A stretch of 64,000 nt of DNA from an uncultured bacterium (GTDB lineage Bacteria > Patescibacteriota > Microgenomatia > Levybacterales > UBA12049), in the NCBI GenBank assembly GCA_963826535.1, contig CAWGXL010000008.1, positions 2,679 through 66,678 on the forward strand. Direction: 5' to 3'. Positions 44,124 to 64,000 of this stretch are shown here, one piece after another. Numbering within the stretch: the stretch's first letter is position 1; the number at the start of each line of letters is the position of its first letter. The translations under genes were made by a program, and so were the position numbers. Under the pieces are notes generated by a model. The model was not told the origin of the DNA and searched no databases. It was given only the letters and a program-made list of their open reading frames with translations.

Positions 44124-44341
44124 AAAAGGTTTATACAATAAAGATAACTTCTAATAATTCTCATCCAAACATCTGGTATGCTAAACGGATAGGGCAGGAG
44201 TTTGAAGCCGAATTATCAATGGGAGCAAAAGGTTATGTGGTTTACAGGTTGAAGGGTAATTATATAGTTCACCCGGAAGACTGTATAGTTTTAAATGTCA
44301 AGGAAGAAGAAAAGCATTTTAAAGAACAAAGAGTAGAATAA
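44120..44341 (+). CDS. hypothetical protein
   Basis: ORF coupled to the methyltransferase gene. Confidence 0.3.
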   Translation: MKKVYTIKITSNNSHPNIWYAKRIGQEFEAELSMGAKGYVVYRLKGNYIVHPEDCIVLNVKEEEKHFKEQRVE

Positions 44342-44359
44342 TTTATATATCGTAATAAA

Positions 44360-45326: not shown

Positions 45327-46999
45327 ATTTAAATTGGCTTAAATACGGCATAGATATTTCTAAACAAAGAGGCGGTAAAATGCTTTGTCCTAACTGTAGC
45401 CATACCAGGAAAAACAAAAATGATCATTGCCTTAGTGTTGATGTTGTAACCGGGCTTTATAACTGCCACAACAACAACTGTGGATTTAAGGGAAGCGTAG
45501 TTGAGTATAGGCCAAAAAAAGAATTTGTTAAACCTATACCGAGATTGGAAGTTTTAAGAGCCAAAACGGTGGAATGGTTTGAGAAAATAAGGCGCATATC
45601 TAACAACACTTTGCTAAGATTTAAAATTACTGAGATTAAAGAATGGATTTGCTTTAATTATTTCAGGGATGAACAATTGGTAAATATCAAATTCAGGGAT
45701 ACAGCAACAAAATCCTTTCGCATGACGAAGGACGCAGAGCTAATTTTTTACAACCTGGATGCGATAAAAGATGAAAATGAATGTGTAATTGTTGAGGGTG
45801 AAATTGATTGTCTTACCTGCCATGAATGCGGAATTTATAATTCTGTATCTGTACCAAATGGCGCAAGCAAAGGAAATCAAAAGCTTGAATATTTGGATAA
45901 TTGTTGGGAATGGTTTGAGAATAAAACAAAAGTGGTTTTAGCTGTTGATAGCGATGAAGCTGGCGTTATGTTACGGGATGAATTGGCGCGGAGATTAGGG
46001 AAGGAAAAATGTTTTACGGTTGAATATCCGCAAGGATGCAAAGATGTGAATGAAGTGCTTATAAGCCATGGTAAAGAAGCAGTAATTCAAATCATAGCCG
46101 CAGCAAAAGAAATACCACTTGAAGGAATAAAAACAATGGATGAAATGTATCAACAGATTTGTGATTGGTACGAACATGGTTATCCAAAAGGAGCAAGGGC
46201 CCGTATAAGTGGGTTCGACGAATTACTAACTTTTGTCCCGGGCCAACTAACTATGATAACAGGGATTCCGGGCCATGGTAAAGACGAGTTTGCAAATCTT
46301 ATTATGACCTCCCTTGCTAAGTATGAAGATTGGAGTTGGGGGATATGTGCCTTTGAAGAAAGCCCGGAAGAAACGGTTACAAAACTCATTGAAAAACTTA
46401 CAGGAAAATCTTTTGATTTTAGGATTGATAAATCACAAAGAGTTAATGAAAGTGAGTATGAAACTGGGTTAGGACTTGTTGATAAATATTTTCACTTCAT
46501 AAAAACAGAAGATATTGAAACCGATCTTGAAGGTATTTTAATTAAAGCAGAACAAATGGTAAAACGTTTTGGGATAAGAGGTTTTTGCCTTAATCCCTGG
46601 AATTGGGTTGAGCATTTTAGAGAAGCATACATAAGCGAAACAGAATACGTAAGTCATGCGCTCACTAAGGTTATTTTATTTTCACGAAGGTTTAAGGTGC
46701 ATTTTTTTTTAATGGCACATCCTACAAAAATGAGTAAGAAAGATGGGAAAAAATATGATGTACCAACTCTTTATTCAATTAACGGATCAGCAAATTTTTT
46801 TAATAAGACTCATAACGGAATAACAGTTTATAGAGATGCTGATACGGTTGATGTTCATGTTCAGAAAGTAAAGCAAAGCTGGTTAGGTAATACTGGTTTA
46901 TGCCAATTTAGGTATAACACTTATACTCGGCAATATGCTGCATTATCTGAGTTTAAATTAAATGGTTTTGTACCTATTCAAATAGATAGAACATTTTGA
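45323..46999 (+). CDS. bifunctional DNA primase / P-loop helicase
   Basis: Zinc ribbon CPNCSH...C...YNCHNNNC; TOPRIM VIVEGEIDCLT and VLAVDSDEAG; P-loop ITGIPGHGKDEF. Confidence 0.65.
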   Translation: MNLNWLKYGIDISKQRGGKMLCPNCSHTRKNKNDHCLSVDVVTGLYNCHNNNCGFKGSVVEYRPKKEFVKPIPRLEVLRAKTVEWFEKIRRISNNTLLRFKITEIKEWICFNYFRDEQLVNIKFRDTATKSFRMTKDAELIFYNLDAIKDENECVIVEGEIDCLTCHECGIYNSVSVPNGASKGNQKLEYLDNCWEWFENKTKVVLAVDSDEAGVMLRDELARRLGKEKCFTVEYPQGCKDVNEVLISHGKEAVIQIIAAAKEIPLEGIKTMDEMYQQICDWYEHGYPKGARARISGFDELLTFVPGQLTMITGIPGHGKDEFANLIMTSLAKYEDWSWGICAFEESPEETVTKLIEKLTGKSFDFRIDKSQRVNESEYETGLGLVDKYFHFIKTEDIETDLEGILIKAEQMVKRFGIRGFCLNPWNWVEHFREAYISETEYVSHALTKVILFSRRFKVHFFLMAHPTKMSKKDGKKYDVPTLYSINGSANFFNKTHNGITVYRDADTVDVHVQKVKQSWLGNTGLCQFRYNTYTRQYAALSEFKLNGFVPIQIDRTF

Positions 47000-47101
47000 A
47001 ACACACAAAAACAATATTAAAGCTTATGCTGGTTTTAATTCTGATAGCAGTGATTTATTTGTTTATTATCTGGCTGGCTTTAAATTCTAATAAAGGTTTT
47101 T

Positions 47102-47605
47102 ATGAGTAAAAATTGGACTTTAGGCGATATAGAAAAACTTTCAGCAAGAGGTTTTAGGGTTAATGTTAAGTCGGTTCTTCATGTTTCAGATCTCAACGAT
47201 TTTAAGACTAAAAAAATAATACCTCTACAAAAATTATTAGATAAGGCTCAAAAAGAATTTAATAAGTTTATTCGTAACAGGGATGCTCAAAAAGGTTGTA
47301 TTTCATGTCAGTCATATAACGTACAGCAAGCGTCACATTTTTTCAGTGTAGGGCAATTTTCAGCATTAAGATTCCACGAAGATAATGTGGCGGGTAGTTG
47401 TCTTAAATGTAACTATTTTCTTTCAGGTAATTTATTAGCATATAGAGAAAGTTTGTTAGTTAGAATAGGCGAACAAAGATTAAATGATCTTGAATTATCA
47501 GTAAAAATAAATAGGGTTAAAAAGTGGTCACGTTTCGAATTAGAATTAATTTATAAAATGTACAAAGAAAAAAATAATATAAGTATAAAAAGTTATGAAT
47601 CTTAA
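47102..47605 (+). CDS. NinG/Rap-like recombination protein
   Basis: CISCQSY...ASHFFSVG...CLKCNYF Cys/His pattern. Confidence 0.45.
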   Translation: MSKNWTLGDIEKLSARGFRVNVKSVLHVSDLNDFKTKKIIPLQKLLDKAQKEFNKFIRNRDAQKGCISCQSYNVQQASHFFSVGQFSALRFHEDNVAGSCLKCNYFLSGNLLAYRESLLVRIGEQRLNDLELSVKINRVKKWSRFELELIYKMYKEKNNISIKSYES

Positions 47606-48050
47606 AAACTACACATCAGATATTGAACCAACAAAATCAATGGCAAACATTGAAAGATGGCTCATTGAAATTGGCGCAAGCAATATAAATAAAAACTATG
47701 TTGATAAAATATGTGTAGGGCTTACGTTCTTGTATTTTGATCAAGCCATTAACCAAACACTTGCCTTTCATTTGAAGGCACAAGTGCAGGAATGTTTTAA
47801 TATTTTTTGGAAAGATAGGGTTCAAGAAACGCCTTCGCAGAAAGAAAACTGCATGAAGCAGGCAAATAAAACAGCATGGAAAATACTCAGCGATTGGACA
47901 GAAATACAATGCTCAATGATTTTGCTTGGTCAGGCAACACCCTTACAGATGTTTTTGCCATTTGTTTATGATACCCAAAAAAATGAAACACTTTATGATA
48001 AAATAAGTTCAGGTAAAATGAATAATCTATTAACTTATAACCATGGATAA
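47595..48050 (+). CDS. hypothetical protein
   Basis: ORF. Confidence 0.3.
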   Translation: MNLKNYTSDIEPTKSMANIERWLIEIGASNINKNYVDKICVGLTFLYFDQAINQTLAFHLKAQVQECFNIFWKDRVQETPSQKENCMKQANKTAWKILSDWTEIQCSMILLGQATPLQMFLPFVYDTQKNETLYDKISSGKMNNLLTYNHG

Positions 48051-48669
48051 TATACCACAAAAGATATACCTGCATCGGTTCAAGTCAACCGATGCCTTCT
48101 TTAATGGGTGGAGCAATAAAAGGGAAAGCGATACTGACATAGAATATGTCTTATCTCAACCTGTACAGGATATTAAAAGTGCAGAGGATGTTTATAGGAA
48201 ACATTGGGCAAGATGGGTAAACAGAACATTTAAGAATGATAAAGAGGTTATGCCGGAAGACTTATCAGATGAGGATGAACACTATTGGATATACGAAGCT
48301 ATGTTGGAATTTGCAGTACAATTTTCACAACCTTTAAGCACCCCTGTTGTACAGCCAACAGATGAACAGGTAGAGGCCATAGCTGAAAAAGCGATACCTG
48401 CTTTTGTTGTTGAGGTTAAGGAAGGCGAGGAAGAAGTTGATACCCGTATGAGACAAATAAATGCTGACTTGGTAAGAAGTTATATGATAGGGGGATATAT
48501 GAGGTGTTTAAAAGCAATGTGGCAACCCATACCTGATGACAAAACCATACAGGCAATGGCAGACGAGTATGCCCGAAATGAAGAAACACCTGTGAGTTGG
48601 GAGCATAGGCAGGGATTTGTAGCAGGCGTAAAAGCAGGGATTAACCCAAAAACTAAAAAACAATGGTAG
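48043..48669 (+). CDS. hypothetical protein
   Basis: ORF; its C-terminus resembles that of 48716..49042 (IQAMAxEY ... GxKAG). Confidence 0.35.
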   Translation: MDNIPQKIYLHRFKSTDAFFNGWSNKRESDTDIEYVLSQPVQDIKSAEDVYRKHWARWVNRTFKNDKEVMPEDLSDEDEHYWIYEAMLEFAVQFSQPLSTPVVQPTDEQVEAIAEKAIPAFVVEVKEGEEEVDTRMRQINADLVRSYMIGGYMRCLKAMWQPIPDDKTIQAMADEYARNEETPVSWEHRQGFVAGVKAGINPKTKKQW

Positions 48670-48715
48670 ATAGTAGATGGATTGACAAACCAAGTGAGTT
48701 AGAAAATCAACCATT

Positions 48716-49042
48716 TTGGATATGTTGGCATGCTTGTATGTTGTTCCTGCATGGCGTTTTTACTTTACGAACAGTTTAATGAAATTTATGAAAAATACAG
48801 CGACATTAATAGATGAGTTATACAGGGAATATATTGTACATGAAGAATTGCCTATAGATTTTCAAATAGGTATGCAAAACTTTCTGGATAAATTAAAGGA
48901 AGTATTATCACCACCCATAACTGATGCCGATATACAGGCAATGGCAGAGAAGGAATATCCTGAAGGTCAAAATGCGGTTAATATAAAAAGAGAAGCCTAT
49001 ATCAAAGGTGCAAAAGCAATGCTTCATCTTAAAAACAAATAA
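48716..49042 (+). CDS. hypothetical protein
   Basis: ORF. Confidence 0.3.
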   Translation: MDMLACLYVVPAWRFYFTNSLMKFMKNTATLIDELYREYIVHEELPIDFQIGMQNFLDKLKEVLSPPITDADIQAMAEKEYPEGQNAVNIKREAYIKGAKAMLHLKNK

Positions 49043-49121
49043 ATGGAAATAACAGACATACAAATCGGTGACGCTGTAGTGTATATCCCAAAGCATTTAT
49101 TATTACGGGGATAGCGGTAAA

Positions 49122-49367
49122 ATGATACTGGATGAAAACCTCGGTATTGTAACTTCCAAAAATGATAACTATGTTTTTGTAAAGTATAATGGGAAAGAAT
49201 ATAGTGCCGCAACTAACCCACAAGATTTATTTACTCTTAGCGGAAGACCTGACTTAGCGGAAAAGTTAGGTATTGAGATAAAACCTATCAATAAAATATA
49301 CGAATTATACTTAGAACAGAAAACAATGCTTCAACTTAAGATACACACTCATGCCAATTTCAGATAA
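49122..49367 (+). CDS. hypothetical protein
   Basis: ORF. Confidence 0.3.
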   Translation: MILDENLGIVTSKNDNYVFVKYNGKEYSAATNPQDLFTLSGRPDLAEKLGIEIKPINKIYELYLEQKTMLQLKIHTHANFR

Positions 49368-49551
49368 TGATAGAATATGGGCTTTAAGGGGTATAATCCA
49401 GGATTTGGAAAAGCGTTTGACTGAGACGAATGATTTACTGGGCAGTGCAACAAGAGAAGGAGAAAGGTTACAAAAGAAAGTTTTAGAGTTAGTAGCAGTT
49501 AAATCTAAAACAGAATCGGGAAAACAAAGAACTAAAAAAATAAAAGATTAA
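49351..49551 (+). CDS. hypothetical coiled-coil protein
   Basis: ORF. Confidence 0.3.
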   Translation: MPISDNDRIWALRGIIQDLEKRLTETNDLLGSATREGERLQKKVLELVAVKSKTESGKQRTKKIKD

Positions 49552-49560
49552 ATTGCAGTA

Positions 49561-49785
49561 ATGGTAAAACTTTCTACAATAAAATCTAATCCTGACAATC
49601 CCCGGATCATCAAAGACGATAAATTTAAAAAACTCGTCACCTCTATAAAAAACTTCCCTAAAATGATGGCTTTACGTCCGATGGTAGTAGATGACCATGA
49701 AACAGTTTTAGAAATGATGCAGGCTATAGCTTTAACTATAAAAGATAAGATACTAACAGTTGATAAACAGTTGATAAATGCCTAA
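49561..49785 (+). CDS. ParB N-terminal-like (ParBc) domain protein, possibly the N-terminal part of the terminase small subunit
   Basis: KLSTIKSNPDNPRIIKDDKFKKLVTSIKNF...RPMVV (NPR motif); ends at TAA 49783-49785 with the same frame open downstream. Confidence 0.4.
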   Translation: MVKLSTIKSNPDNPRIIKDDKFKKLVTSIKNFPKMMALRPMVVDDHETVLEMMQAIALTIKDKILTVDKQLINA

Positions 49786-49878
49786 TCCTCAAAACTTAGA
49801 AAAAGAAAGTCATTTGTAAAAAATGATCCGCGTATTAATAAAGAAGGCAGGCCTAAACTACCTGACCTCAAACTCCTT

Positions 49879-50136
49879 ATGGAAGAAATAATGGGAGAAG
49901 AGAAAGACGGTAAAACTGCAGCATTCGCAATCCTGGCTGCATTACGGGCGAAAGCAGCCAAAGGTGACGTAAGGGCAGCAGAGATGCTAATGAACAGGGG
50001 GTATGGTCTTCCTAAGCAACATATAGAACATTCAGGCAGCATAGAAACACCAATAATATTTAAACTTGATGACAAGTTCAGAGAAGATAGTCTTAACGAC
50101 CCCGGTGTTCCAAAAAAACTTGGCGGCATACCTTAA
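49879..50136 (+). CDS. terS: terminase small subunit candidate (C-terminal part)
   Basis: In-frame region 49786-49878 upstream encodes NDPRINKEGRPKLP (GRPK motif typical of TerS N-termini); located immediately before TerL. Confidence 0.4.
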   Translation: MEEIMGEEKDGKTAAFAILAALRAKAAKGDVRAAEMLMNRGYGLPKQHIEHSGSIETPIIFKLDDKFREDSLNDPGVPKKLGGIP

Positions 50137-51244
50137 TCCGAAATATAATGTTATTTGTGACGAAGGTGGTAGTAGATCAGGTAAGACATTTGGGATAATC
50201 CAACTTTGTGTTGGCATAGCCGGCAATGAACCAAACAAAAGAATATCAATAGTGTCTCATTCATTACCTCATGTTAAAAGGGGGGTATTAAGAGATTTTA
50301 AATTGATCATGCAGGAAATTGGTTGGTGGTATGAAGAACAATGGAGTGCGACAAACTTTATTTATACTTTTAAGAATAGCAGTTATATAGAATTATTTGG
50401 TTTAGAGGATGAATCTAAAGCAAGAGGACCAGGTAGGGATATTCTATTTGTAAATGAAGCTAACCTGATAACTAAAACTTTATTTGATCAGTTGGCAATG
50501 AGGACAACAGGTAAAATCTTTTTAGATTGGAATCCTGCTGACTTTAATTCATGGTGTTATGAGTTGGCCGATGATCCAAAGAATAAAAGAATACATTCTA
50601 CCTACAAAGACAACATTCACAATTTAAGCCAATCGCAAATAGATTACATAGAAGCCTATAGAAATTTACCTGATGACTTCCTTTGGAAAGTTTACGGGTT
50701 AGGAGAAAGAGGAGCAGCCAAAGAACTAATTTACACTACCTGGAAATATTATACCGATGATCCGCTTAATGGAGATGTTTTTTACGGTTTAGACTTTGGA
50801 TATACTAATCCTTCGGCAATGGTAAAAGTAACGCATTATGAAGGCGCTAATTACGTGCAGGAGGTATTATATCAGTCTTCATTAACCGTACCGGAAATGA
50901 TTAACCGAATTAAAAGTTTAGGTATAGGCAAAAGTATAATTTATGCTGATTGTGCAGAGCCTAAAACTATTGATGAGATTTATAAAGCCGGGATAAATAT
51001 TAAACCAAGTGATAAAGATGTGTGGGCAGGTATTGTAGGAGTAAAATCATATCCACTTTATATAAAGAAAGGTTCAGATAATTTAATAAGAGAATTGCAG
51101 GGTTACAAGTGGAAGAAAGATAAAAACGATAATATAACTGAAGAGCCGGTTAAAGCTGATGACCATTTAATTGATGCGTTACGTTATGCAATATTTACAA
51201 ACCTTGTAACACCAAAGCTGGTTTATTCAGATGCAAGATATTAA
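50066..51244 (+). CDS. terL: terminase large subunit (PBSX/Terminase_3-like)
   Basis: Walker A-like VICDEGGSRSGKTFGII; FVNEAN; the start is possibly a TTG near 50119. Confidence 0.7.
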   Translation: MMTSSEKIVLTTPVFQKNLAAYLNPKYNVICDEGGSRSGKTFGIIQLCVGIAGNEPNKRISIVSHSLPHVKRGVLRDFKLIMQEIGWWYEEQWSATNFIYTFKNSSYIELFGLEDESKARGPGRDILFVNEANLITKTLFDQLAMRTTGKIFLDWNPADFNSWCYELADDPKNKRIHSTYKDNIHNLSQSQIDYIEAYRNLPDDFLWKVYGLGERGAAKELIYTTWKYYTDDPLNGDVFYGLDFGYTNPSAMVKVTHYEGANYVQEVLYQSSLTVPEMINRIKSLGIGKSIIYADCAEPKTIDEIYKAGINIKPSDKDVWAGIVGVKSYPLYIKKGSDNLIRELQGYKWKKDKNDNITEEPVKADDHLIDALRYAIFTNLVTPKLVYSDARY

Positions 51245-51255
51245 AAACTTTATAC

Positions 51256-51516
51256 ATGAAAAAGTATCTTATAATCCTTGTACTATTCTTTAGCGCCTGT
51301 AAACATGAAGCACAAGAAACAACGCATAGCGGAGATTTTAAAATAGAATTTCTGTTTGAAAAAGATGGGTGTAAAATGTATAGATTTAAAGATGCTGGTG
51401 ATTTAATATATTGGGCAAACTGTGAAGGTAGGACAAGCTATGAGACAACATTTGTAAGCGGCAAACCTCCAACAGTTATTAAAAAACAAATTCAAGCAGT
51501 TACTACCAAGCATTAA
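51256..51516 (+). CDS. small lipoprotein (moron between terL and portal)
   Basis: Lipobox FFSAC. Confidence 0.4.
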   Translation: MKKYLIILVLFFSACKHEAQETTHSGDFKIEFLFEKDGCKMYRFKDAGDLIYWANCEGRTSYETTFVSGKPPTVIKKQIQAVTTKH

Positions 51517-51577
51517 ACTTTATACTTATCCCACTATTCACCTTTGCCCTTAATAATACCTTAGCATAAAAATAAGG

Positions 51578-53062
51578 ATGGGTGTATTTGACTTCTTTAA
51601 AAAAGATAAGGTTATAAAAGACTTGTCTGCCCAGGTTAAAGCATTACAACAATATAATACCAATAATTTTCTAAGATTTAATAATCTTAACCGCAACATT
51701 GCTCTATTCCCTGAATGGGATATACATACTAACTCTGAGCGTTACGCCACTACTGATGATATTTATTCTATTGTTCGTATGCTTGCCACTACTGCAGCAA
51801 TGATACCTATTTATGCTTACCAGGTAGTTGATGAGGTGGCACAAAAGAAACTTAACAGAATAAAGCAGCCACATAATAAACCATATGAAGTAAAAGCTCT
51901 GCAGGTAAAAGCATTAGAAGAACTACCAGGTGATGACAGGGTTGAAATGCTAATGGAGAACCCTTGCGAATATAAAAGCAAGTTTGAGTTTTATGAGGCT
52001 ATTTATACCTTTCTTTTTTTATATGGTGAAGCATTTATATTAAAAGAAAGGCCGGTTGTAGGTGTTAACTCAGGGCTTACAGTATCTCTCCACCCTTTAT
52101 ATCCCCAGAACATTATTTTGAAAGTAAGTGGTGATTTACCACGTAGAATAACAGGCTATGACTATAAAGTAAATGGAGTTACTATTTATGAGAATTTACC
52201 TGTAGAAGATATAATACACCTGAAGTATTTTAATCCAACAATGGATTATTTGGGTACCGAATTAAGAGGACTTTCACCTTTACAGGTTTTAGCTAAAAGA
52301 TTAGGTAGAATGGATGCCAACCTTAATACATCTGTTGCACAGATGCAAAATGGAGGTGTGCAAAAAATTGTGTGGGATGAAAACGATACCGGTGTTCCAT
52401 TTACTCAGGATGGTAAAGAGGTAACAATTGCAGGAGCAAGGAAAGATAATTTTTATAGGTTCCTGAAGAACCCTGGTAATTATGGGGCTCCATTCTTTGC
52501 AGCTGGCAAAATGGGTGTTATCGATATTGGCAGCACACTTGATGAAATGGGGATTTTAGAAATAGGTAACATAGATTTTAAGAAGTTATGTAATGCTTAC
52601 GGTACTTCTGATATACTTTTTAATTCAGATGTTGCCAGTACTGAGAGCAATGTAACTGTAATGGAGAAAAGGACTTATACCAATACAGTTTTACCAAATG
52701 TTTACAGGGTAAGGGATGCCTTAAAGGCCGGATTGTTGGAAGACTTTGAAAAAGGAAGAAGATACGTTAAGATAGATGAAAACGGTAATGAAAATCAGGT
52801 AGTAATAGAAGGGGATGGTGTTAAGCGGGATATACGGGAAGATATTTCAGAGATACATTCTTTGCAGGAAGATATGGGTAAGATGGTAGCATGGATGCAA
52901 CAGGCCTGGTGGATTTTACCTAATGAAAAAAGGTTAATGATGAAATATGATGAAATAGATAATCCATTGTTTAATGAACCGTTAATTCCTACAGGTATGC
53001 AAACTACAGAAGATTTTCAGAGCGTAGAGCCCTTAGATATTGTTACTGAGGAAGGAAATTAG
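51578..53062 (+). CDS. portal protein
   Basis: 494-aa ORF between the terminase and the Mu-F-like gene, about the size of an HK97/SPP1-type portal. Confidence 0.55.
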   Translation: MGVFDFFKKDKVIKDLSAQVKALQQYNTNNFLRFNNLNRNIALFPEWDIHTNSERYATTDDIYSIVRMLATTAAMIPIYAYQVVDEVAQKKLNRIKQPHNKPYEVKALQVKALEELPGDDRVEMLMENPCEYKSKFEFYEAIYTFLFLYGEAFILKERPVVGVNSGLTVSLHPLYPQNIILKVSGDLPRRITGYDYKVNGVTIYENLPVEDIIHLKYFNPTMDYLGTELRGLSPLQVLAKRLGRMDANLNTSVAQMQNGGVQKIVWDENDTGVPFTQDGKEVTIAGARKDNFYRFLKNPGNYGAPFFAAGKMGVIDIGSTLDEMGILEIGNIDFKKLCNAYGTSDILFNSDVASTESNVTVMEKRTYTNTVLPNVYRVRDALKAGLLEDFEKGRRYVKIDENGNENQVVIEGDGVKRDIREDISEIHSLQEDMGKMVAWMQQAWWILPNEKRLMMKYDEIDNPLFNEPLIPTGMQTTEDFQSVEPLDIVTEEGN

Positions 53063-53279
53063 TATCTTGTATCTAAAAAACAATATGGATGTAACAAGGT
53101 TTGACACAGAAACTATTATAGAACAAAAAAATCAATTAGCTGAAAATATCCGTGAGCTTATTCAAACATTTTTAGACAATAATCCAGATCATGACTTAAT
53201 AATTAAGATTGATTATAAAGTACATAGAACGACACTTGGTGAAATAAGAAATACGGTTGTAAATATTTTTATAAGTTAA
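53040..53279 (+). CDS. hypothetical protein
   Basis: ORF. Confidence 0.3.
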   Translation: MLLRKEISILYLKNNMDVTRFDTETIIEQKNQLAENIRELIQTFLDNNPDHDLIIKIDYKVHRTTLGEIRNTVVNIFIS

Positions 53280-53464
53280 TGACCGGTATTGAATTAAATA
53301 TGGAAGTACAGGAGATGCCGCCTGATGGCTCAAAGTGTTTTGAATGTGGAGAAATTATTACAGGCAAAATGTTCCAATATTTTTTATTTGAAGGAACGAA
53401 TTTAAAACCTACGCCAACTAAGTTTAAATTTTGTGAACCGTGTTATATAAAAGCAGGTGAATAA
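53279..53464 (+). CDS. small zinc-ribbon protein
   Basis: CFECGEIITGKMF...CEPC. Confidence 0.35.
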   Translation: MTGIELNMEVQEMPPDGSKCFECGEIITGKMFQYFLFEGTNLKPTPTKFKFCEPCYIKAGE

Positions 53465-53470
53465 ATAGCA

Positions 53471-53668
53471 ATGGCAACATTAGAAATAGACGTATTATTA
53501 GAATGGTGTGAGATGCCAATAGATTTAAGTTATTGTGATTTATGTAATGATTTAATAGCAGGTAAGATGTTTGAACTTTTTGTATTTGTTGATGATAAGC
53601 CAGAAGGATTAATTAAATCTTGTTCATCTTGTTATTATATGATAGGAATTGTTACCAATGGCAGATAA
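53471..53668 (+). CDS. small zinc-ribbon protein, tandem paralog of 53279-53464
   Basis: CDLCNDLIAGKMFELF...CSSC. Confidence 0.35.
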   Translation: MATLEIDVLLEWCEMPIDLSYCDLCNDLIAGKMFELFVFVDDKPEGLIKSCSSCYYMIGIVTNGR

Positions 53669-53828
53669 AGAATTAATAAAAATAGTTGAGGAAGCTATAC
53701 CATTAGACCCAAAGTGTCAGATTCAAAGGAACTATGATATTCATAGAAGGGATAAGCTAATGAGGAAAATAAAAGAGTATGTAGCTAAACAATTAGAAGC
53801 GCAGTTTAATGCAAAAGAAGTAGCATGA
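53658..53828 (+). CDS. small hypothetical protein (56 aa)
   Basis: Hand-translated as MADKELIKIVEEAIPLDPKCQ...; below the ORF-track cut-off. Confidence 0.25.
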   Translation: MADKELIKIVEEAIPLDPKCQIQRNYDIHRRDKLMRKIKEYVAKQLEAQFNAKEVA

Positions 53829-53928
53829 CAATAGATATTTTACAGTCAATTAGTTTAGTATTACTTTCACTCGTTATAATTCATTTAGTATTTAGAATTA
53901 GAAAATTAGAAAAAAAAGATTAAATGGG

Positions 53929-54730
53929 ATGGACAAAAGAGATTACCTCAACCGCTTTCACAGGTTCCAAAGAAGCCGGGAAAAGTTCTTCGCTCCAAAA
54001 ATTAACGCCGCTTTAAAATCCCAATACAAAAGTTTTATTGATAATTTGCCCTATGGTGAACTGGAAGCTTTAAATAGAATTAGCTCTAATGGCATAGTAC
54101 GTGTATTACAGAATTTATACATGGATGCGGGTATTAATTATGGAGCTAAGGTAAGGTCCGATTTAAATAGAACAGTGCCCTATAGACTACCTAACCCCGG
54201 CGATTCATTCCATAAAAGTATTAAGGCACGTTTGCCTATGGGCTTTAGTGAACGTATGGCTCAATTGATAGCCGATTATTTCCGCACTGATATTTTAAAT
54301 ACTTCTGAACGCATTACAGATACCACAAAAGATTTAATAAGGCAGGTTTTTACAGATGCTTATTCTCAAGGGTTGGGCATTGATGATATCATAAAACAAT
54401 TAGAAAATACTGAACTAAGCCGGATAAGAGCGCGGTTAATTGCACGTACCGGAGACTGTAACTTCAGCAAATCAGGGTGCAATGTTCGTTGCTAAAGAAA
54501 CCGGGCTAACATTACGCAAGGGATGGCTTTCGGCACGTGACAGTAGGGTAAGATTTCATCATAGGAATGAAAATGGGCAGGTGATAGGTGTTGATGATTT
54601 TTTTACTGTAGGGAATGATTTGATGTTGTATCCGGGTGATAAAGGTGGACATAACGGGCAACCAAAAGTAAGTGCCGGAAATTTATGCAACTGCAGATGT
54701 TCAGTTTTAATGATACCTGTTGATGATTAG
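53929..54730 (+). CDS. head morphogenesis protein, Mu F / SPP1 gp7 family, interrupted by a +1 frameshift near 54449
   Basis: RLIART in frame 1 continues as ETVTSANQGAMFVAKETG...WLSARDSRVRFHHR...NCRCSV in frame 2; one extra base lies within accgGag. Confidence 0.55.
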
Positions 54731-54759
54731 TTGAGGTAAAAAAAATCGTAAATTAAGTT

Positions 54760-55002
54760 ATGACAGCAAAAGAAAAGGCTGATGAGTTAGTAAATAAGTT
54801 TTATCAGAATATTACGGCTGATAGTGCTTATCCAGATTATCATGCAAAGGAAGCTGCCTTAATAGCGGTGGATGAAATAGTAAAACAGTTGGCATCTTTG
54901 GATGAATGCACTTTGTGGGATAATAAAAAAAATACAAGTATTTATGTATCGGAAATAATTGAATACTGGCAACAAATTAAAATAGAAATAGAGAAGCTAT
55001 GA
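54760..55002 (+). CDS. hypothetical protein
   Basis: ORF. Confidence 0.3.
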   Translation: MTAKEKADELVNKFYQNITADSAYPDYHAKEAALIAVDEIVKQLASLDECTLWDNKKNTSIYVSEIIEYWQQIKIEIEKL

Positions 55003-55282
55003 AGATAGACGTCAGAAAAAATTTTGTGTATAGTAAGTTACGGTTTTTTGGCTTTGGTACTTGCAATGTTCTTTTCCCACCTATAATACTTCCACACTTA
55101 TACATTCAATTTAGTATTTCCTATTAATCATTTTAATAGCGTAATTAGTTGATGGTATGTCCAATTTACATCACTATCAAATTAAGTTTATAATTAATAA
55201 AATAATTTTTTCTGCCATAATACTCCATTGTTAACGTGACTACAATTTACAAAAAACCTGCAACTTTGTTATTTTTGCCAAA

Positions 55283-55770
55283 GTGAAATATTTCTTCTTA
55301 GATAGCCGCATTGACGAAGTTCTTTTAAACAAGTTTTTCCAGTTTGCCAATGATAATTCAGATGATGATTGGACTATTTCAATTTGGAGTACCAGCGGCT
55401 TAACAACTTTATCTAAGGCAATACTTTATATAATCAATTCAAGGAAAGAAAAGGTTACTCTGATATGCGATGGACATATAGTGCTGCTTTTGAAATATTT
55501 TACCATGCTAAGTGTAAAAAAGTTCTTACCAGAGAGTGTAAAGGTATCGTTGATTTATCAGCGGGGGATATTAGATTGTCACGTAACGGAAAAGCGAATG
55601 ATCCTGAAAATCTTTGTGTTATGAAAAACTGGCAGGAAGATAAAACATCTAATAAGTGGGTTAAGAAAATACTTGTCAGCGAAGAACTTAAAAAGTTTAA
55701 TAAAGGCGAAGATGTTTATTTGACAACTAAGCGGATGAAAGAAATATTCCCTGATGCAGAAATAATTTAA
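55283..55770 (+). pseudogene. possible ClpP-like prohead protease, frameshifted near 55478-55482 (1-bp indel)
   Basis: SIWSTSGLTTLSKAILYIINSRKEKVTLICDG resembles the ClpP core; the continuation ...KCKKVLTRECKGIVDLSAGD lies in another frame. Confidence 0.3.
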
Positions 55771-55844
55771 TTTCTATCTTCCTCTAAGCAAACTTAAAAT
55801 ATAGCCATGCAAGACTTGTCACATTCCATAGCCTCTTTTTGCAA

Positions 55845-56420
55845 AGCTGGTTTAATGGTTCCAAGCCGACCGGGAACGGGTTATAATTACTCCCATACGT
55901 TTAATAATTCTATCCCTTAATTCTGAAAGATTACTACTCTGTAATTCTTTTGCTATACTTTTTATAGATGATGGTTATTATAAGCATAAGTGAAAGTGGC
56001 GATAATGTTTTCCCTCATTTCATCCGTTAAGGGCTCTACATCTAAAATCTCAATTTTAAAATATTCGGTAATTAAATCTTTTACTCCCTGTTTACAGGTT
56101 GTTTCATGGATAGGCAAATTGTGTTCAGCAATAAACAAAAGTGGTTTTATTTACATAATTACCATTCAGTGCACACTTTAATGTTATTAATTTAAATTTT
56201 TAGATTCAGCAGCTTCTTTAACTGAATCATAAAAAATACCATTTGAAGTATCTAAAACAAGTCTGCCAGTTAGATGTAACATATCTTTTATATTTTTCTG
56301 ATCTTGTACACTAAACTAAATTTTCTACATTATTATTTAATGGATTTCTATCAAGATGGCCAACTTCTTTTTTATTTTGTGGATTTGGGATATAAGTTTT
56401 AGCAACAATCGGATTAACTC
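55845..56420 (-). pseudogene. decayed HNH homing-endonuclease remnant
   Basis: Reverse-strand fragments NPQNKKEVGHLDRNPLNNNVENL (HNH) and SIAKELQSSNLSELRDRIIKRMG (DNA-binding module) lie in different frames with stops between them. Confidence 0.3.
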
Positions 56421-56789
56421 TAAAGGTTTTTCGTTATCCATTAGATTGTTTCAAGTTGGTAGAATAGTATCCTCTTGTAATACCATATTTAAGAAATTCT
56501 TTCGTAGTTAGATTCCAATTTTCCTTTTGGTAGTTATAAGATAATTATCACAACCTTCAATCATTTTCATTTTTATGAATTTCCATAAAGATATAATTAA
56601 ATTTTAATTACCTACCTAATATTGTTAGTGAATTTTTAACTAAAGATGTTGGTAGGAAGAAAAAGGTTAAAAATGGATACGAAGTAAAAATCATGAATGT
56701 TAAATCAAAGAAGATAAAGAAAAAGAAAGATGGAAAGGAAATCTATAAACTTTGAATTAAAGGACATTGACAAAGGCAAACGTATGGCA

Positions 56790-58159
56790 GTGATCGCCGG
56801 CTCGGTGGGCGCCTCGGTGGTCGGTTCGGTTGTCGGTTCCGTGGTCGGCGGCGTCGTGGCCGGCCTGGTCGTGGCAGGCGCGGAGGTCGGCGGCCGAGCC
56901 GTCGGCGTGCGGCTGGGCTGCAGCGACTGGCCGCTCGGCCGGGCGGGCTCGGTGTTCTCGTCCGACGAGTCCTGCAGGCCGGGCACACGCCGGGCGCCGA
57001 GCTGTCGGTGACCCGCGCCGACGGCGTGGTGACCGGTTGCTCCGCGGTGCCGCTCCGGTCCGGCTGGAAGAATAGCGCAGGGCCAGCAGGCCGCGGCCAG
57101 ACCGAGGAAGATCACGGTCAGCAGCACGGCCAGCTCGGCGCCGGTGCGCTTACGCTGGCCCGGCGCCTGCGGCACGTACGGCAGGTCGTGCGGCGCCGGT
57201 GCGGGTCCAGGTCGGCGGCGGCCGGGCCCAGTGGCATGGTGAGCGCGGTGCCGGTCATCGCCGCGCTGGTCAGCGCGGTGCCGGTCTGCGTGGTGCCGGT
57301 GCTGGTCAGCGACTGGTAGTCCATCGGCGTGCTGGCGGCGAGCGCGGCCTCGGCGAACTCGGCGGCGCTGGCGAAGCGGTCCTCCGGGTGTTTCGCCATG
57401 GCGCGGCTGATCAGCTCGCGGACCGCCACCGGCACCTCGGCGGGCAGCGGCTCCGGATCCTCGTCCAGGTGGCGCAGCGCCACCGGAGGGCGGTGTCACC
57501 GTCGAACGGGCGGATGCCCGGAGAGGCAGTGGTATGCCACCGCGCCCAGCGCGTAGATGTCCGTCGCCGGCGTGACGTTGCCCTTGGCCACCTGCTCCGG
57601 TGCCATGTAGAGGGCGGTGCCGACGATCGAGTTGACCCCGGTCAGGCTGGTCACCGCGTTGGACCGGGCCATGCCGAAGTCGACGAGGATGGACCGCGCC
57701 GGTCGGGCTTCACGATCAGGTTGCCGGGCTTGACGTCGCGGTGCACGGTGCCGGTCTGGTGCGCGGCGTGCAGCGCGTCCGCGGTCTGGGACACGATCGA
57801 CATGGTCTCCGCGACGGTCAGCCGGCCGACCTCCTTGAGGCGGGTGGACAGCGGCTCGCCCTCCACGTAGCGCCATCACCAGGTAGGCGCACTGATCCTC
57901 GTCGGCCGAGTCGCGGCGCTCGGCGTAGTCGTAGACCTCGACCACGCCCGGGTGCCGGAACGCGGCCATCATCCGGGCCTCCGCCGTAGAACCGGGCGGC
58001 GAACTCCGGGTCGCGCATCATCGACGGACGCAGCACCTTGACCGCGACGACGCGGTTCAGCACGACGTCGGTGCCGCGCCACACGTCACCCATGCCGCCC
58101 GTGGCAATGCGCTCGTCCAACCGGTAACGGTTGTCGAGGAGATGACCGGCATCCAGCAC
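56790..58159 (-). pseudogene. PknB-like Ser/Thr protein kinase (kinase, TM and Pro/Thr-rich tail), broken by frameshifts and truncated at the GC junction
   Basis: Across at least four frames: GGMGDVWRG...VAVKVL, HRDVKPGN, DFGMARS...APE; TM LAVLLTVIFLGLAAA; PTTEPTTEPTTEAPTEP runs into the AT-rich DNA with no stop. Confidence 0.55.
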
Positions 58160-58229
58160 CAGCGGACCTTATCTGCTCGGGGGACCTCGGGGGAAAGCCG
58201 AGTGACGCTCACTGTATCGAGCGGGCCGC

Positions 58230-58809
58230 TCAGCGCCGGATCAGCGGGGGCACCCGGCGACCCTGCGCGGAGTCGGTGATCAGCTGTTGCAGGCGGCGTT
58301 CCCGGGTGTCCGCGCGCTTGCCGCTGACCACCCAATGAGCTGCCGCTTTGCGGTACGACGGCGACTGCGCGGAGTACCACTGGAAGGCCTTGGTGTCCAC
58401 TTGGAGGAGGGCCAGTTTGGCGTCGTCAGGCCGGGCGTCATCGGGCTGCTCGTACGAGTAGGTCGCCACCCGATCGGGTCGCCGGGTCTCGTACGCGTGC
58501 AGCCCGGCCGGCCGCATCAGCCCCTGTTCGGTGAGGCGCGCCACAGCCGCGATGTTCACCACGCTCCACACGCTGCCCTTGCGGCGCGGCGTGAAGCGCA
58601 CCTGGTGCCGGTCCTCGTCGATCGCGCCGGCCGATGCTGTCGATCCAGCCGAAGCACAGCGCCTGCTCGATCGCCTCGGTGTGCGAGATGCCCGGCTTGC
58701 CGGTGTGCTTCTTCCAGTAGCCGACGAACAATTCCGGCGCTTCGGCATGATTTTCCTCGTACCAGGCGCGCAGCTCGGCGACTGTGGTGAAGAACACGGC
58801 ATCGGTCAT
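58230..58809 (-). CDS. YdeI/OmpD-associated family protein, one frameshift
   Basis: VGYWKKHTGKPGISHTEAIEQALCFGWIDS then (+1 base) IDEDRHQVRFTPRRKGSVWS...KRADTRERRLQQLI. Confidence 0.5.
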
Positions 58810-58879
58810 GACGGCAGAGTAGGGCCGCCGGGCGGCAAAGGGTCCCGGCCGGCGGCCACTACCGCTCCTCGACCGGTAG

Positions 58880-59280
58880 TCAGCTGTCGTACCTGGGGGT
58901 GACCACGACCGCGGTCTCGGCCAGCTCGAGCTCCTCGGCCTCGGCCTGACGCTCGAGCGCGGCCCGCGCGGCGGTCGCCGCGGCCAGCCGAGCGCGGCGC
59001 CGAGCAGGCCGGCGCCGATGATCAGGCCCCAGGGCAGGCCCGGGCTTGCGTACCGGCCAGTGCGTTCGCGGCCGCGTTGGCCCGCGCCCACGCCTCGTCG
59101 GCGACCGAACCGACCGTGCTGCCCGCCTGGCCCGCCAGCTTCGAGCTCTTCTTGCTCGGCCCGGTGGCGAACTTCGAGCTCTTCTTGGAGCCTGCGGCCC
59201 GCCAGTTGCGACGGCCGTGAGCTGGTGACGTCGACCGTGTGCTTGCCGGCCTCCCGGGCGGTGTCACCCGCCGCGGTCAT
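58880..59280 (-). CDS. small Ala/Lys-rich membrane protein, frameshifted
   Basis: KKSSKFATGPSKKSSKLAG..., TM GLPWGLIIGAGLLGAALGW, and tail ...ERQAEAEELELAETAVVVTPRYDS spread over two or three frames. Confidence 0.25.
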
Positions 59281-59687
59281 GGCGGACGACAGGTAGTCCC
59301 ACGCCTGGGCGGCCGTCCGCTCGGCTTTGTTCTTCCTGGGCGAACATGTCTTGTACCTCCTGCGTTTCGCCGGTGCAACCCTAACCCTGCCCAGGCACCG
59401 GGCGGCAAACGTCCGGCCGGGCGGCCGGGGTCGCGTGTGGACAGCGTCACACCCGGATAAAGCGGTGGACGCCGTCGGTAGGCTGGTGCCGATCCAAGCC
59501 GCGGTACACAGGCGGTTGCCAGGTTCGGTGCATAGGCTGGCGGAGTTTCACCGAACCCCACGGGGGTAGCAGCCATCGGCACTCCCGGGCGGACGGCGAT
59601 CACCGGGTCACGGCGTCACCACGCCAAGGCCCGCCGGCCGCGACAGGAACAGACGGCGGGGCGTCCCGGGCGGGTGGAGGTAATGGC

Positions 59688-60078
59688 GTGAGCCTGTCGA
59701 TAACGACGTCGACGCTGGCCAGTGGCGCGGTGGAGGTCTTGCCGGAGGCGAGATCGACGTCGAGACGCCTATTCGATCAAGGACGCGGTGGCGGCTCAGC
59801 TCGCCGACGACCGTCCCGAGCGCATCGAGCTCAACATGCAGTACGTGAGATTCATCGACTCCGTGGGCATCAGCGCCCTCGTGAGTGCGCACCAGCTCGC
59901 CGGGATCAGCGGCGTCAAGCTGGTGGTCACGCGTCCCAGCCGGTTCGCGCACCGGCAACTCTGGGTGACCGGCCTGCTCGGTCTCTTCGGCAACCCGGAC
60001 CCGTGCCCGGAGTGTACGGATCCTCGCGGAGCAGCCCGCGGTGTCCGGCGCATGACCGCGAGTGATTCTCACCTTTAG
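59688..60078 (+). CDS. STAS-domain anti-sigma-factor antagonist, two frameshifts
   Basis: LAGGEIDVETP (third frame) and ...IELNMQYVRFIDSVGISALVSAHQLAGISGVKLVVTRP. Confidence 0.45.
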
Positions 60079-60130
60079 CCTTCCTGTGGTGACTTGTTAC
60101 CCGGTGTCCGATACGGAATAGTGCCCCATC

Positions 60131-61090
60131 GTGGCGCGACTTCCGATGGGCACCGCCATCCTCCGGCGATACGTGCTGATCGGCGCCATCGGCCAGGGCG
60201 GCGTCTCGACCGTCTATTCGGCCGTCGATGCCCGCCGGGGCCGCAAGCTGGCGGTCAAGGTGCTCGCGCCGAGCCTGGCCGACGACCCGGCGGCGCGCGA
60301 TGACGTGCGGCGTGAGGCGCTGATCACCGATCGGCTCCGGCACCCGAGCGTGCCCCGGGTGTTCGAGTACGGCGAGGCGCCGCTCCCGGACGGCACGGTG
60401 GTCCCGTACGTGGTGCTGGAACTGCTGGCCGGGGTGCCGCTCACCGAGATGCTCGCCGACGGCCCGCTGGACTGGCCGGAGGCGGTGCGGATCGCGGCCA
60501 CCGCGGCGGACGTGCTGGCCGTGGCCCATCGCCGGGGGGTGGTGCATCGCGACCTGACCGCGCGCAACATCATGGTCACCCCGGCCGGCGTCAAGATCAT
60601 CGACTTCGGCCTGGCCACCGCGGCGTGCGTACTGCCGGGGACGGGACCACCGGACCGGGCATCGCCGCCTCGAGACCGGCGCCGGCACCGGTGGCCGCGC
60701 GGCCGGCGCGGGAACGCCGGCGCCCCGGGACGGCCGATCATGGTGCGCGCCGGCGAGCCGCGGCCGGGCCTGCCGTCGCATCCCAAGACCGCGTTCGCCC
60801 GGCCCACGGACGACGTGTACTCGCTGGGCACGCTGCTCTACGAGATGCTCACCGGCGAGTCGCCGTACCCGCCCGCGATCGCCGCCACCATCCTCGCCGC
60901 GGGCCGGGTGTCGCATCTGGCGCCGACCCCGGTGATGGCCGTGCCCGGCCTGCCGGCGGGGTCCGGGGGCTGGTCCGGGCCTGCATGGCCAAGAACCCCG
61001 AGTGACCGCCCGGCGGCGCGAGGTCGCGCTGTCGTTGTGGGTGATGCTCGATCGCGGGGGCGACCGGCTGCCCGGCCGTCGTACTAGCCG
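60131..61090 (+). CDS. Ser/Thr protein kinase (second copy), with at least one frameshift in the activation-loop region and near the 3-prime end
   Basis: GQGGVSTVY, LAVKVL, HRDLTARNIMV, IIDFGLA, DVYSLGTLLYEMLTGESPY; LVRACMAKNPE sits in another frame. Confidence 0.5.
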
Positions 61091-61868
61091 CGGTCTGCAC
61101 CCAGGGCGGCGGTCCCTCGAAGGCGAGCACGTGCACGTCGAAGAGGACCGCCGCCTCGACGCCGATCGCGGGTCCGCCCATCTCGGCGATCCAGGTGAGG
61201 AACGGCCCGGTCCGGGCCGCCCGCGCCGAGCCCCTTGGTGTACTCGGCGTGCGCGGCCAGCGACGCGATGCCCCGCTGCAGCGGCTCGCCGGTGACGTCC
61301 ACGCCGTGGGTCGGCTCGGCGCGCCGGCGAAGCCGACGTACCGCACGCCGCCCCACGGCTCGAGTCCCTCGTCGGCCAGCTCCGGGAAGATCCACCGGTT
61401 GCCGGCATCCCGGGCGGCGTCGAGCGTGGCCAGCCCCACCGCCCGGTGGTCGGCCTGGTTCGTGATGCCGCCGACCATCCGCACCGTGAGCCGCCGGTGA
61501 CGATGACCTCGGGGCGGTGCTGCCGGATGGCCCGGACGATGTCGCGTCGCAGCGCCAGCCCGTACTCGACGACCCCGTCCCGGTGGTCGAGGAACTCCAC
61601 GATGTCGACCCCGACCTCGCGGGCGCCCGGCGCGCTCCTCCGCCTCGCGCAGCGGCGCGGCCTGATCGGGGTGCATGCTGTCGATGCCGGCCTCGCCCCG
61701 GGTGGCCAACAGGTAGGTGACCCGCTTGCCCTGTGCGGTCCAGCGCGCGACGGCCGCCGCGGTGCCGTACTCGATGTCGTCGGGATGCGCGACCACGGCC
61801 AGGCAGCGCTCCCAGTCCTCCGGCAGCATGGGCAGCAGATCAGCCATGAGTCGGTACAGTCTCGTCAT
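61084..61868 (-). CDS. LmbE/PIG-L family deacetylase (MshB/Mca-like), multiple frameshifts
   Basis: LAVVAHPDDIEYGTAAAVARWTAQGKRVTYLLATRGEAG; FLDHRDGVVEY...IRQHRPEVIVTGG; HRAVGLATLDAARDAG...; HGVDVTGEPLQRGIASLAAHAEY, spread across frames. Confidence 0.5.
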
Positions 61869-61874
61869 CGGCCG

Positions 61875-62788
61875 ATGGATTCTGGTCGCTGCATCCGCAG
61901 GCCCGCGCCGCGCTCGGGCGTCCAGCAGCGCGTGCCGCTGACCCGCGACAACCTGGCCGACGTGCGGCAGCAGCATGGTCGACGCGGCGCCGGCCGAGGT
62001 CGGCCCCGGCCCTCGGTGCGGACGGTGGTCGACGTGGACGCCGGCGGCGTACCGGCCCGGCTCTACCGCGCGGTCGCGGTGCTCCAGTTGTCGTGTACGC
62101 GCACGGCGGCGGCTGGGTGATGGGCGGCCTGGACACCCACGACGGGCTGTGCCGGCGGCTCGCCGTCGAGTCGGGTTGGGCGGTGCTGGCGGTCGACTAC
62201 CGGCTCGCGCCCGAGCACCCGTACCCGGCCGCGCTCGACGACCTGCGAGCGGCGCTGGCCTGGCTGCGGGGACGGCGCCGCGGGCCCGCTCGACGCCGGT
62301 CGGGTCGCCGTGGCCGGCGACTCCGCCGGCGGGCACCTCGCCGCCGTCCTGGCCCGGCGCTGCCGCGACGGCGGGGTCCGGCTCGCCGGCCAGTTGCTGA
62401 TCTGCCCGGTCATCGACCCGGCCGGCGAATACCCGCCGCTCGACGACTACGGCCTGCACCGCGACGAGATGCGCTTCTTCTGGGACGCGTACGCCCCGCC
62501 CGGCGTCGACCGCGCGCATCGACCTGGACCCGTTGCGCGCCGACCTGGCCGGCCTGCCGCCGGCCGTCGTCGATCACCGCCGAACTGGACGTGCTCGCGC
62601 GACGAGGGCGAGCGGTACGCGGCCCGCCTCGGACGGCCGGCGTCCCCGTCGTCGCCGTCCGGTACCAGGGGCTGATCCACAACTTCCCGCGCAAGCTGGC
62701 CCTGTTCGACGCCGCCGGGGTGGCCGTCGCGCAAATCGCCGCCGCGCTCAGCGCACCGGGTTTCGCATCCGGATCGACTCCAGGTTGA
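61875..62788 (+). CDS. alpha/beta-hydrolase fold-3 (HSL-family) esterase/lipase, at least three frameshifts
   Basis: ARLYRAV...YAHGGGWVMGGL...DYRLAPEHPYPAA; nucleophile elbow GDSAGG; DVL..DEGERYAARL; GLIHNF. Confidence 0.5.
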
Positions 62789-63575
62789 GCCGTACGTCCC
62801 GGGCCTGGTCGGGGGAGCGGATCGGCGTGACCACCGCGTAGCCGTGCGCCAGCACCGGCCAGGTCGGTGCCCTCCTCGAGCTCCTCCTCGGCCGCCTGCA
62901 CCGCGGTCCGGACGAAACCCTCACCGGCCTCCGCGATGCTCATCTGCACCTGACCGAACCGGGCCAGCCGCGGCCCGCCGCAGCCCGCGGATGCCGTCCG
63001 GAGGCAGATCGGGCACGTTGAGGTTCAGCACCGTCCCGGCCGGCGTTGCGTCAGCGTGGGCAGCAGGCCGACGGCCAGCTCGGCCGCGGTCTCCCAGTGC
63101 CGCTTCTCGTCGTCCACTGGTCCAGGTCCGCGATCGCCGCGCCGCCGCTGGCCGCGGCCGCGGCGCCCGGGGTGAGCACGTCCAGCGAGACCGCCAGGCC
63201 GCGCAGCCGGCGTCGGGCGGTCAGGGCGGCGCCGACCGTACCCGAGTGCAGCACGGCCGTGCCCGCGTTGGCGCCCCGGTTCATGCCGGAGAGCACGACC
63301 TCGGCGGGTCGCCGAACGCCTCGCGCAGGGCGAGCATCGCGATGAAGCTGGTGAGGCGGCGACCGCGTACGCCGGCACGTCCTCCCCGGCAGCTCCCGCT
63401 GCTCGCACCACGATCTCCGTCCTCCTCCACCGCCGAGATGGACGCGCTGCTGCCGCTGGCCTCCTTGGCCGGCGCGGCGACCACCACGTCGTGCCCGGCG
63501 CGCTGCGCGGCGCGGGCGAGCGCGGATGCCCGGCGCGTCGATGCCGTCGTCGTTGGTGATGAGAAGCATCGTCAT
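62748..63575 (-). CDS. surE: 5-prime/3-prime nucleotidase SurE, frameshifted
   Basis: MTMLLITNDDGIDAPGIRA ... VVVAAPAKEASGSSASIS ... HSGTVGAA ... TDLAG..GYAVVTPI, in alternating frames. Confidence 0.55.
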
Positions 63576-64000
63576 GTGGTCCTTCCCGATCGTGGCGACA
63601 ACTCGACGCGGCCGGTGACCTCCGCGATGGCCTCGGCGCTGTCCGGTACCCAGCCCGTGCCGGGTCACGTTGAGCGCGCCGGCGGCGGCGCCGGTGCGGA
63701 CGGCCTCGCGCAGGTCACCGCCCTGGGCCAGCATGGCCGCCACGCCCGCGGTCATCGAGTCGCCGGCGCCGTGGTGGTCGGCCTCCTCCAGCCGGGGCGG
63801 GTCGACGACCAACACCTCGCCGTCGAGCAGGGCCAGCGCCGGCTGCTCGGCCCGGCTGATCACCACGGCGCCTCGGCCCCGCGTCGTGCAGCTCGTGCAG
63901 CGCCGCGATCAGGTCGGCCTCGTCGTCGGCGCCCGGCCGTCCCGGAGCAGCTCCTCGTCGCTGACCTTGAGGAACTCCACCCCGCCGTCGAGGACCGCGT
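63572..64000 (-). CDS. PfkB-family carbohydrate kinase, C-terminal part (start beyond window end)
   Basis: VVDPP...HHGAGDSMTAGVAAMLAQGGDLREAVRTGAAAGALNVTRHG (GAGD box); its stop overlaps the surE ATG (ATGA). Confidence 0.45.

Follow-up and report, generated by a model that had tools for sequence, protein, structure and literature searches.

The window analyzed here, a stretch of 64,000 nucleotides, passes from AT-rich DNA into GC-rich DNA in the middle of a gene, and the question that this locus raises is whether the two halves were joined in nature or during sequencing and assembly. The earlier note on this DNA had described the switch as abrupt, had reported that it truncates a kinase gene, and had named as its likeliest causes a misassembly, a chimeric read or an artificial concatenation. 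We suggest that the join is almost certainly a sequencing or assembly artifact and no biological junction, and that one error-prone chimeric long read was probably attached to the end of a phage contig.

Results

Phage DNA on the left side of the join

The left side of the window has a GC content of about 0.35 and carries the gene complement of a tailed phage, i.e. a glycosyltransferase, connectors, large tail-like ORFs, an integrase, a helicase-methyltransferase, a primase-helicase, TerL, a portal protein and a Mu F protein. The window start interrupts a gene, and the phage part does not close inside the window. The features on this side are as follows.

1..56789, plus strand: AT-rich DNA of a temperate tailed phage of the Bacteroidota type
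1786-3192: glycosyltransferase
31554..32714, plus strand: tyrosine integrase with Arm-DNA-bind_5, Phage_int_SAM_5 and Phage_integrase domains
41421-44123: helicase-methyltransferase
45323-46999: primase-helicase
50066-51244: TerL
51578-53062: portal
53929..54730, plus strand: Mu F-like gene, frameshifted
55777..56138, minus strand: broken phage gene, homologue of a 149-150 aa protein, with four 1-base deletions (55969, ~55896, 55866 and 55810)
56730..56798, plus strand: Peptidase_S78 prohead protease, N-terminal ~23 codons only, from alignment to the relative L083

Matches among GenBank phages have ~25% amino acid identity, and the better-covered ones are mostly Cellulophaga and Flavobacterium phages; the portal protein likewise is ~25% identical to those of Cellulophaga and Flavobacterium phages in GenBank. 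The nearest relatives found are metagenomic, with portal identities of 53-63% and GC contents of 0.37-0.39: L081 (JGI 3300002100), L082 (Logan SRR31296745), L083 (JGI 3300015171, 55,093 bp) and L084 (Logan ERR4837132). The phage end had no match in IMG/VR, searched with a 45-mer and with portal patterns, and no exact or near nucleotide match in INPHARED. This phage is poorly covered by reference collections.

Gene order was compared with three of the relatives (L081, L083 and L084), as L082 stops shortly past the portal gene. In all three, TerL is followed by the portal gene, small ORFs, Mu F, a minus-strand ORF, a Peptidase_S78 protease, the major capsid protein and connectors, and the window keeps this order as far as the ORF beginning at 56730. 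The product of this ORF, MERKSINFELKDIDKGKRMAVIA, aligns residue for residue with the N-terminus of the L083 protease, VERKTINFELKDLDKNSRTAIIA; a tblastn search with the 23-aa peptide gave no match. Neither the remainder of the protease (~210-285 codons) nor the major capsid gene, which comes next after the protease in all relatives, was found in the window. Circular closure of the phage was considered as an explanation and rejected: window position 1 lies inside another gene and not in a continuation of the protease, and there is no terminal direct repeat. Because the protease remainder and the capsid gene are missing and the window start offers no continuation, we conclude that the phage is cut within an essential head gene. 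The truncation described in the earlier note is thus only half of what happens at the join: the kinase gene is cut, and a second cut gene, the S78 protease, had been missed.

Several other observations on the phage DNA were made. The glycosyltransferase lies within the head/connector module, as it does in L083, in which a single small ORF separates it from the capsid gene. The final ~49 codons of the window copy (3162-3308) are shifted to another frame (separate HSP, E = 1.6e-8), probably by a further indel close to the window's left end. The 900-aa ORF at 41421-44123 matches a DNA helicase (phrog_16) and DNA methyltransferases (phrog_67 and phrog_498), and in the relatives several N6/N4 and C5 methyltransferases are encoded by separate genes close to the packaging module. 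A short minus-strand reading frame (56230-56400), located between the protease start and the broken 150-aa gene, contains ...DMLHLTGRLVLDTSNGIFYDSVKEAAESKNLN and, by appearance, looks like a small protein of the DNA-binding type.

Composition step and position of the breakpoint

The abrupt change in composition is real and is evident as a step in 1-kb bins, in 60-nt windows and in a likelihood fit. In 1-kb bins, GC is 0.30-0.40 nearly throughout 1-56000, with two bins at 0.44-0.46, and 0.70-0.77 in 57001-64000; 60-nt windows have 0.28 at 56720-56779, 0.67 at 56780-56839 and 0.82 at 56840-56899. A two-segment likelihood fit places the change point at 56786, where GC goes from 0.30 to 0.74, with near-equal likelihood over 56775-56796 and a plausible range of 56775-56798. 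The protease frame is still phage-like up to 56798, where A-V-I-A in the window corresponds to A-I-I-A in the relative L083. Given that the composition shifts at 56786 and that the phage-like protease frame continues until 56798, the breakpoint lies within ~13 nt:

56786..56798: junction zone, from the composition change point and the protease frame

At the join, at most 12 nt (GCAGTGATCGCC) make sense as sequence of either parent, and from these letters a few bases of microhomology may be present. On the GC-rich side, 56798-56845 contains a direct repeat with a 12-nt period, in three copies that are 75-100% alike; it is the coding sequence of the Pro/Thr-rich tail of the kinase (TTEPTTEPTTE) and no boundary repeat.

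Micromonosporaceae DNA on the right side of the join

The right side of the window is chromosomal DNA with the gene order found in Micromonosporaceae, i.e. genes for a PfkB-like protein, a SurE-like protein, an esterase, a PIG-L deacetylase, a second kinase, a STAS protein, a YdeI-like protein and the kinase at the join. The syntenic Micromonosporaceae chromosomes have a GC content of ~0.70.

56790..64000: GC-rich (about 0.73) Micromonosporaceae chromosomal segment, recognized by conserved gene order
56790..58159, minus strand: Ser/Thr protein kinase with a kinase domain, a TM segment and a Pro/Thr-rich tail, recognized by Micromonosporaceae orthologues

The two sides thus come from unrelated genomes, on the left one whose portal, TerL and Mu F are related to those of Flavobacteriia phages and of the metagenomic relatives, and on the right a Micromonosporaceae-syntenic one, and the change from Bacteroidota-phage-like to actinobacterial-like content that had been proposed from the sequence is borne out by homology and synteny.

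When stitched from several frames, the kinase at the join has orthologues in Actinoplanes, Paractinoplanes, Krasilnikovia, Pseudosporangium and related MAGs, with 52-83% amino acid identity to the Micromonosporaceae ones in the best segment. All 39 of the 39 orthologues are intact single ORFs of 441-673 aa. The stitched copy in the window has 459 aa at the cut; the orthologous kinases stop 10-40 residues past the same kind of Pro/Thr tail and are followed by chromosomal DNA of ~0.70 GC. As described in the earlier note, the kinase frame passes without a stop from its Pro/Thr-rich tail into AT-rich DNA: the minus-strand ORF at 56705..57499 reads through the tail, ...TTEPTTEPTTEAPTEPAITA, and continues with IRLPLSMSFNSKFIDFLSIFLFLYLL for 26 codons in the AT-rich DNA until the first stop. 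The extent of the truncation is small; from orthologue lengths and the stitched copy, just the final ~10-40 residues are missing.

Boundary features

A search of the whole window gave neither tRNA nor tmRNA genes, and 54000-60000 had no match in Rfam. The join is not flanked by repeats, direct or inverted, and a terminal repeat is likewise absent. A scan for ONT, PacBio, Illumina, Nextera and 454 adapters found no adapter remnant at the join. The integrase gene is 24 kb from the join and has phage genes on both sides and, for these reasons, the join is no att boundary. The boundary of an integrated prophage was accordingly rejected as an interpretation: the integrase is remote, neither a tRNA gene nor a repeat is found at the join, and the join lies inside a head gene. 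The tRNA, Rfam, repeat and integrase checks therefore agree with the earlier observation that no mobile-element ends, repeats or att sites mark the boundary.

Frameshift density across the join

Frameshifts relative to intact homologues were mapped with a custom frameshift-aware protein-to-DNA aligner in place of plain tblastn, which merged frames badly. Calibrated on intact orthologue pairs of similar divergence, this aligner made 14 false calls in 36,006 nt (0.0004 per nt). In the GC-rich half, all eight of the eight genes require frameshifts to match intact orthologues, with about 41 in 6,156 aligned nt (0.0067 per nt), distributed as follows.

Kinase 1: 7-13 frameshifts, six of them reproducible with every orthologue (57979, 57867, ~57700, 57688, 57507 and 57481)
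YdeI-like: 1 frameshift
STAS: 3 frameshifts
Kinase 2: 4-8 frameshifts
PIG-L: 4 frameshifts
Esterase: 11 frameshifts
SurE-like: 8-10 frameshifts
PfkB-like: 3 frameshifts

In gene-by-gene alignments there are 0-1 in-frame stops across the eight GC-rich genes, and two more in a low-complexity linker of the junction kinase that aligns poorly. The genes have 59-82% amino acid identity to their orthologues, and the stitched YdeI-like protein matches intact 192-aa homologues over its full 192 aa (90%). The second kinase (60131-61087) appears as a 318-aa ORF with an in-frame nonsense stretch; compared with the orthologue L009, 1-base deletions at 60639, 60656 and 60730 jointly restore the frame, and a long open ORF in this region is therefore no proof of an intact gene.

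The frameshifts are not confined to the GC-rich half. The Mu F gene has one extra G at about 54454 (ACC GAG to ACCGGAG), on which three relatives agree, and its homologues in the relatives are single intact ORFs of 268-279 aa; the four deletions in the minus-strand gene at 55777..56138 are also supported by three relatives. In total, the phage DNA at 53.9-56.1 kb has 5 frameshifts in 1,139 nt (0.0044 per nt) versus 1 in 6,482 nt (0.0002 per nt) in the phage DNA before 53.9 kb. A Fisher test separates the phage end from the remaining phage DNA (p = 4e-4) but not from the GC-rich half (p = 0.54). The remaining ~54 kb of the phage is clean, with ORFs of up to 948 aa; seven ORFs of 2.0-2.8 kb are found elsewhere in the phage, and the chance of these staying open at the higher rates is 1e-4 to 5e-9. 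Frameshift calls at 5914/5924, 8110/8166, 51701/51714 and 54190/54222 were discarded as spurious, being antisense ORFs, non-coding stop-to-stop extensions or compensating pairs supported by a single relative.

Given that indels are present in the phage DNA 5' of the join, the indel-rich zone starts before the join, and the composition switch lies within one continuous low-accuracy stretch that extends from 1-2.4 kb left of the join to the window end. An old pseudogene region was considered and rejected on account of the few in-frame stops, the 59-82% identity, the intact-like YdeI-like gene and the same indel density in the adjoining phage genes. Judged from the sequence, the frameshifts are best read as a signature of indel errors and not of gene decay. 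This discontinuity in quality is new evidence, beyond that in the earlier note.

The public record

The portal protein is 100% identical to a protein on a single public NCBI/ENA contig of 66,951 bp. This contig also carries the literal frameshifted phage products, i.e. fragments of 188 aa (Mu F) and 58 aa (the broken gene) and the 80-aa ORF, and the indels on the phage side are therefore part of the assembly as deposited. Exact look-up in the protein collection found none of the 16 tested versions of GC-rich or junction-spanning ORFs (0/16), a result that depends on the starts and the model used by the gene caller; a single low-GC model, if used for a contig that is mostly AT-rich, would predict few sensible genes in a tail of 0.73 GC. 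The junction-spanning minus-strand ORF has no near-identical counterpart among 1.84 billion representatives, in which it had one weak, unrelated match, and the 40-mer across the junction, GACAAAGGCAAACGTATGGCAGTGATCGCCGGCTCGGTGG, has no match in JGI metagenome contigs.

Of the 66,951-bp contig, 2,951 bp are outside the window. The protease remainder, the capsid gene and the start of the gene that is cut at position 1 would together take up about 2.0-3.5 kb, as estimated from the gene sizes of the relatives. These sizes would fit a circular phage map of ~59.7 kb with a foreign tail of 7.2 kb after it.

Discussion

The data presented here show that the join cuts functional units on both sides and that the expected neighbors are missing: the protease gene ends at codon ~23 with no capsid gene after it, and the kinase is 10-40 codons short. 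Judged by frameshift density, the join moreover lies in low-quality sequence. With both genes cut, their neighbors missing, no integration signature and an indel-rich zone extending over the join, the proposal that the join results from misassembly, a chimeric read or concatenation gains support. Among these, we favor a model in which, in a long-read metagenome assembly, a chimeric long read of low coverage extended a well-covered phage contig at its end, and we put the probability of this model at roughly 0.74.

In this model, the phage contig would be well covered and accurately polished to about 54-55.7 kb, and the sequence beyond about 54.4 kb, up to the window end or further (at least 9.6 kb), would derive from one or very few error-prone long reads, a level of read support that we deduce from the frameshifts. 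The phage part of the chimeric read would comprise about 1-2.4 kb and end within the prohead protease gene, and the other part would be a Micromonosporaceae chromosome fragment that begins in the tail of the kinase gene and was joined to it blunt-end. Most likely, two fragments were ligated to each other as the library was prepared, or the assembly graph was mis-joined where a contig ended at low coverage. Because there is no adapter at the join, we favor these two routes over the in-silico concatenation of reads. Chimeric reads make up about 1.7-3% of the reads from nanopore ligation libraries (PMC6156371). We infer that a long-read platform was used for this assembly, and an indel rate of 0.4-0.7% would be expected of a single modern long read or of a consensus of very few reads. 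The truncation and the frameshifts of the kinase would then be attributable to the artifact. Several points stand against the chimeric-read model: it offers no explanation for a fall in the coverage of the phage over its last 1-2.4 kb, none of the 16 GC-rich or junction-spanning ORF versions is in the protein collection, the junction-spanning ORF has no near-identical representative, and the junction 40-mer is missing from JGI contigs.

The negative ORF look-ups bear on an alternative model, in which two public records were set end to end when the 64-kb window was made, so that a phage contig with a ragged, low-coverage end at ~56789 would be followed by an indel-rich, low-coverage Micromonosporaceae contig from ~56790, whether of that assembly or of a different one. 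Concatenated records would look just like this, with one contig ending and the next starting inside a gene, and poor accuracy at a contig end and along a low-coverage contig would fit the indel pattern. Moreover, no gene call extends across the join, and the phage ORFs are on the 66,951-bp contig, yet none of the 16 versions of right-half or junction ORFs is on record. However, the 66,951-bp contig alone suffices for a 64-kb window and padding would be needless, and a separate GC-rich record should have yielded some of the tested ORFs under a GC-appropriate gene model; the absent calls better fit a low-GC gene model on one mostly AT-rich contig. In addition, the equal indel density on the two sides (p = 0.54) is explained more simply by one read than by two low-coverage ends. 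We consider concatenation of records unlikely, although it is the main rival. A chimera generated in a short-read (de Bruijn graph) assembly or during amplification, e.g. by MDA or PCR template switching, is highly improbable. The ~12 nt that are sensible in both parents (GCAGTGATCGCC) would be compatible with a microhomology-mediated template switch, but short-read assemblies do not have 0.4-0.7% indels, an overlap of 12 nt is far under any assembly k-mer, and the indel-rich zone over the join indicates long-read data.

Finally, the join could be natural, either because a Micromonosporaceae bacterium captured phage DNA by Ku/LigD end-joining or because a phage acquired actinobacterial DNA, with the frameshifts reflecting real pseudogenization. 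Actinobacteria possess non-homologous end joining, for which repeats and att sites are not required. Nevertheless, such an event would have to place at least 56.8 kb of 0.35-GC phage DNA of the Bacteroidota type, with ORFs of up to 948 aa, directly against 0.73-GC DNA, with an essential phage gene cut at codon ~23, the capsid gene missing and the integrase 24 kb away. Also, frameshifts are present in 8/8 conserved genes with almost no in-frame stops and at the same density in the adjoining phage genes, and this shared pattern fits errors in sequencing better than the decay of two unrelated lineages. We find a natural join with real pseudogenization barely credible. We assign next to no probability to a variant in which a phage fragment of the Bacteroidota type of >56 kb was truly captured in the kinase gene of a Micromonosporaceae bacterium by homology-independent end joining and the indels reflect poor sequencing only. 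The earlier argument that natural transfer is not expected to yield an unflanked join in the middle of a gene is in line with this assessment: with both genes cut and no boundary signature, a natural join is very unlikely.

Significance

The join is almost certainly not a biological feature, and its value lies in flagging a public record and in providing an example of a test for chimeric joins that does not depend on reads. At one end, the public 66,951-bp contig probably has about 7-10 kb of foreign actinobacterial DNA riddled with indels, and this tail could be mis-scored as a phage-borne kinase, as gene transfer across phyla or as a signal for host prediction. The comparison of frameshift density against intact orthologues on either side of a composition step is a read-free test that can be reused.

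Comparison with known systems

The locus can be compared with three known systems. As in the att junction between a prophage and its host or in a hybrid made by specialized transduction, phage DNA, here from a temperate phage with an integrase, lies beside a bacterial chromosome. In contrast to these, the join is in the prohead protease gene with the integrase 24 kb away and neither a tRNA gene nor a repeat present, and the bacterial side is from another phylum and separated by a 40-point GC gap from the phage genes of the Bacteroidota type. Compared with actinobacterial PknB-like Ser/Thr kinases that have a TM segment and a Pro/Thr-rich extracellular tail, the kinase in the window is an ordinary orthologue, in conserved gene order, of one shared by Actinoplanes, Paractinoplanes and relatives, except that this copy is without its last ~10-40 codons and has 7-13 frameshifts. 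Chimeric long reads and misassemblies at contig ends show the same seamless mid-gene join of unrelated genomes without biological boundary features and, as in chimeric-read misassemblies, the join in the window is found in a terminal contig stretch of low accuracy and, presumably, low coverage.
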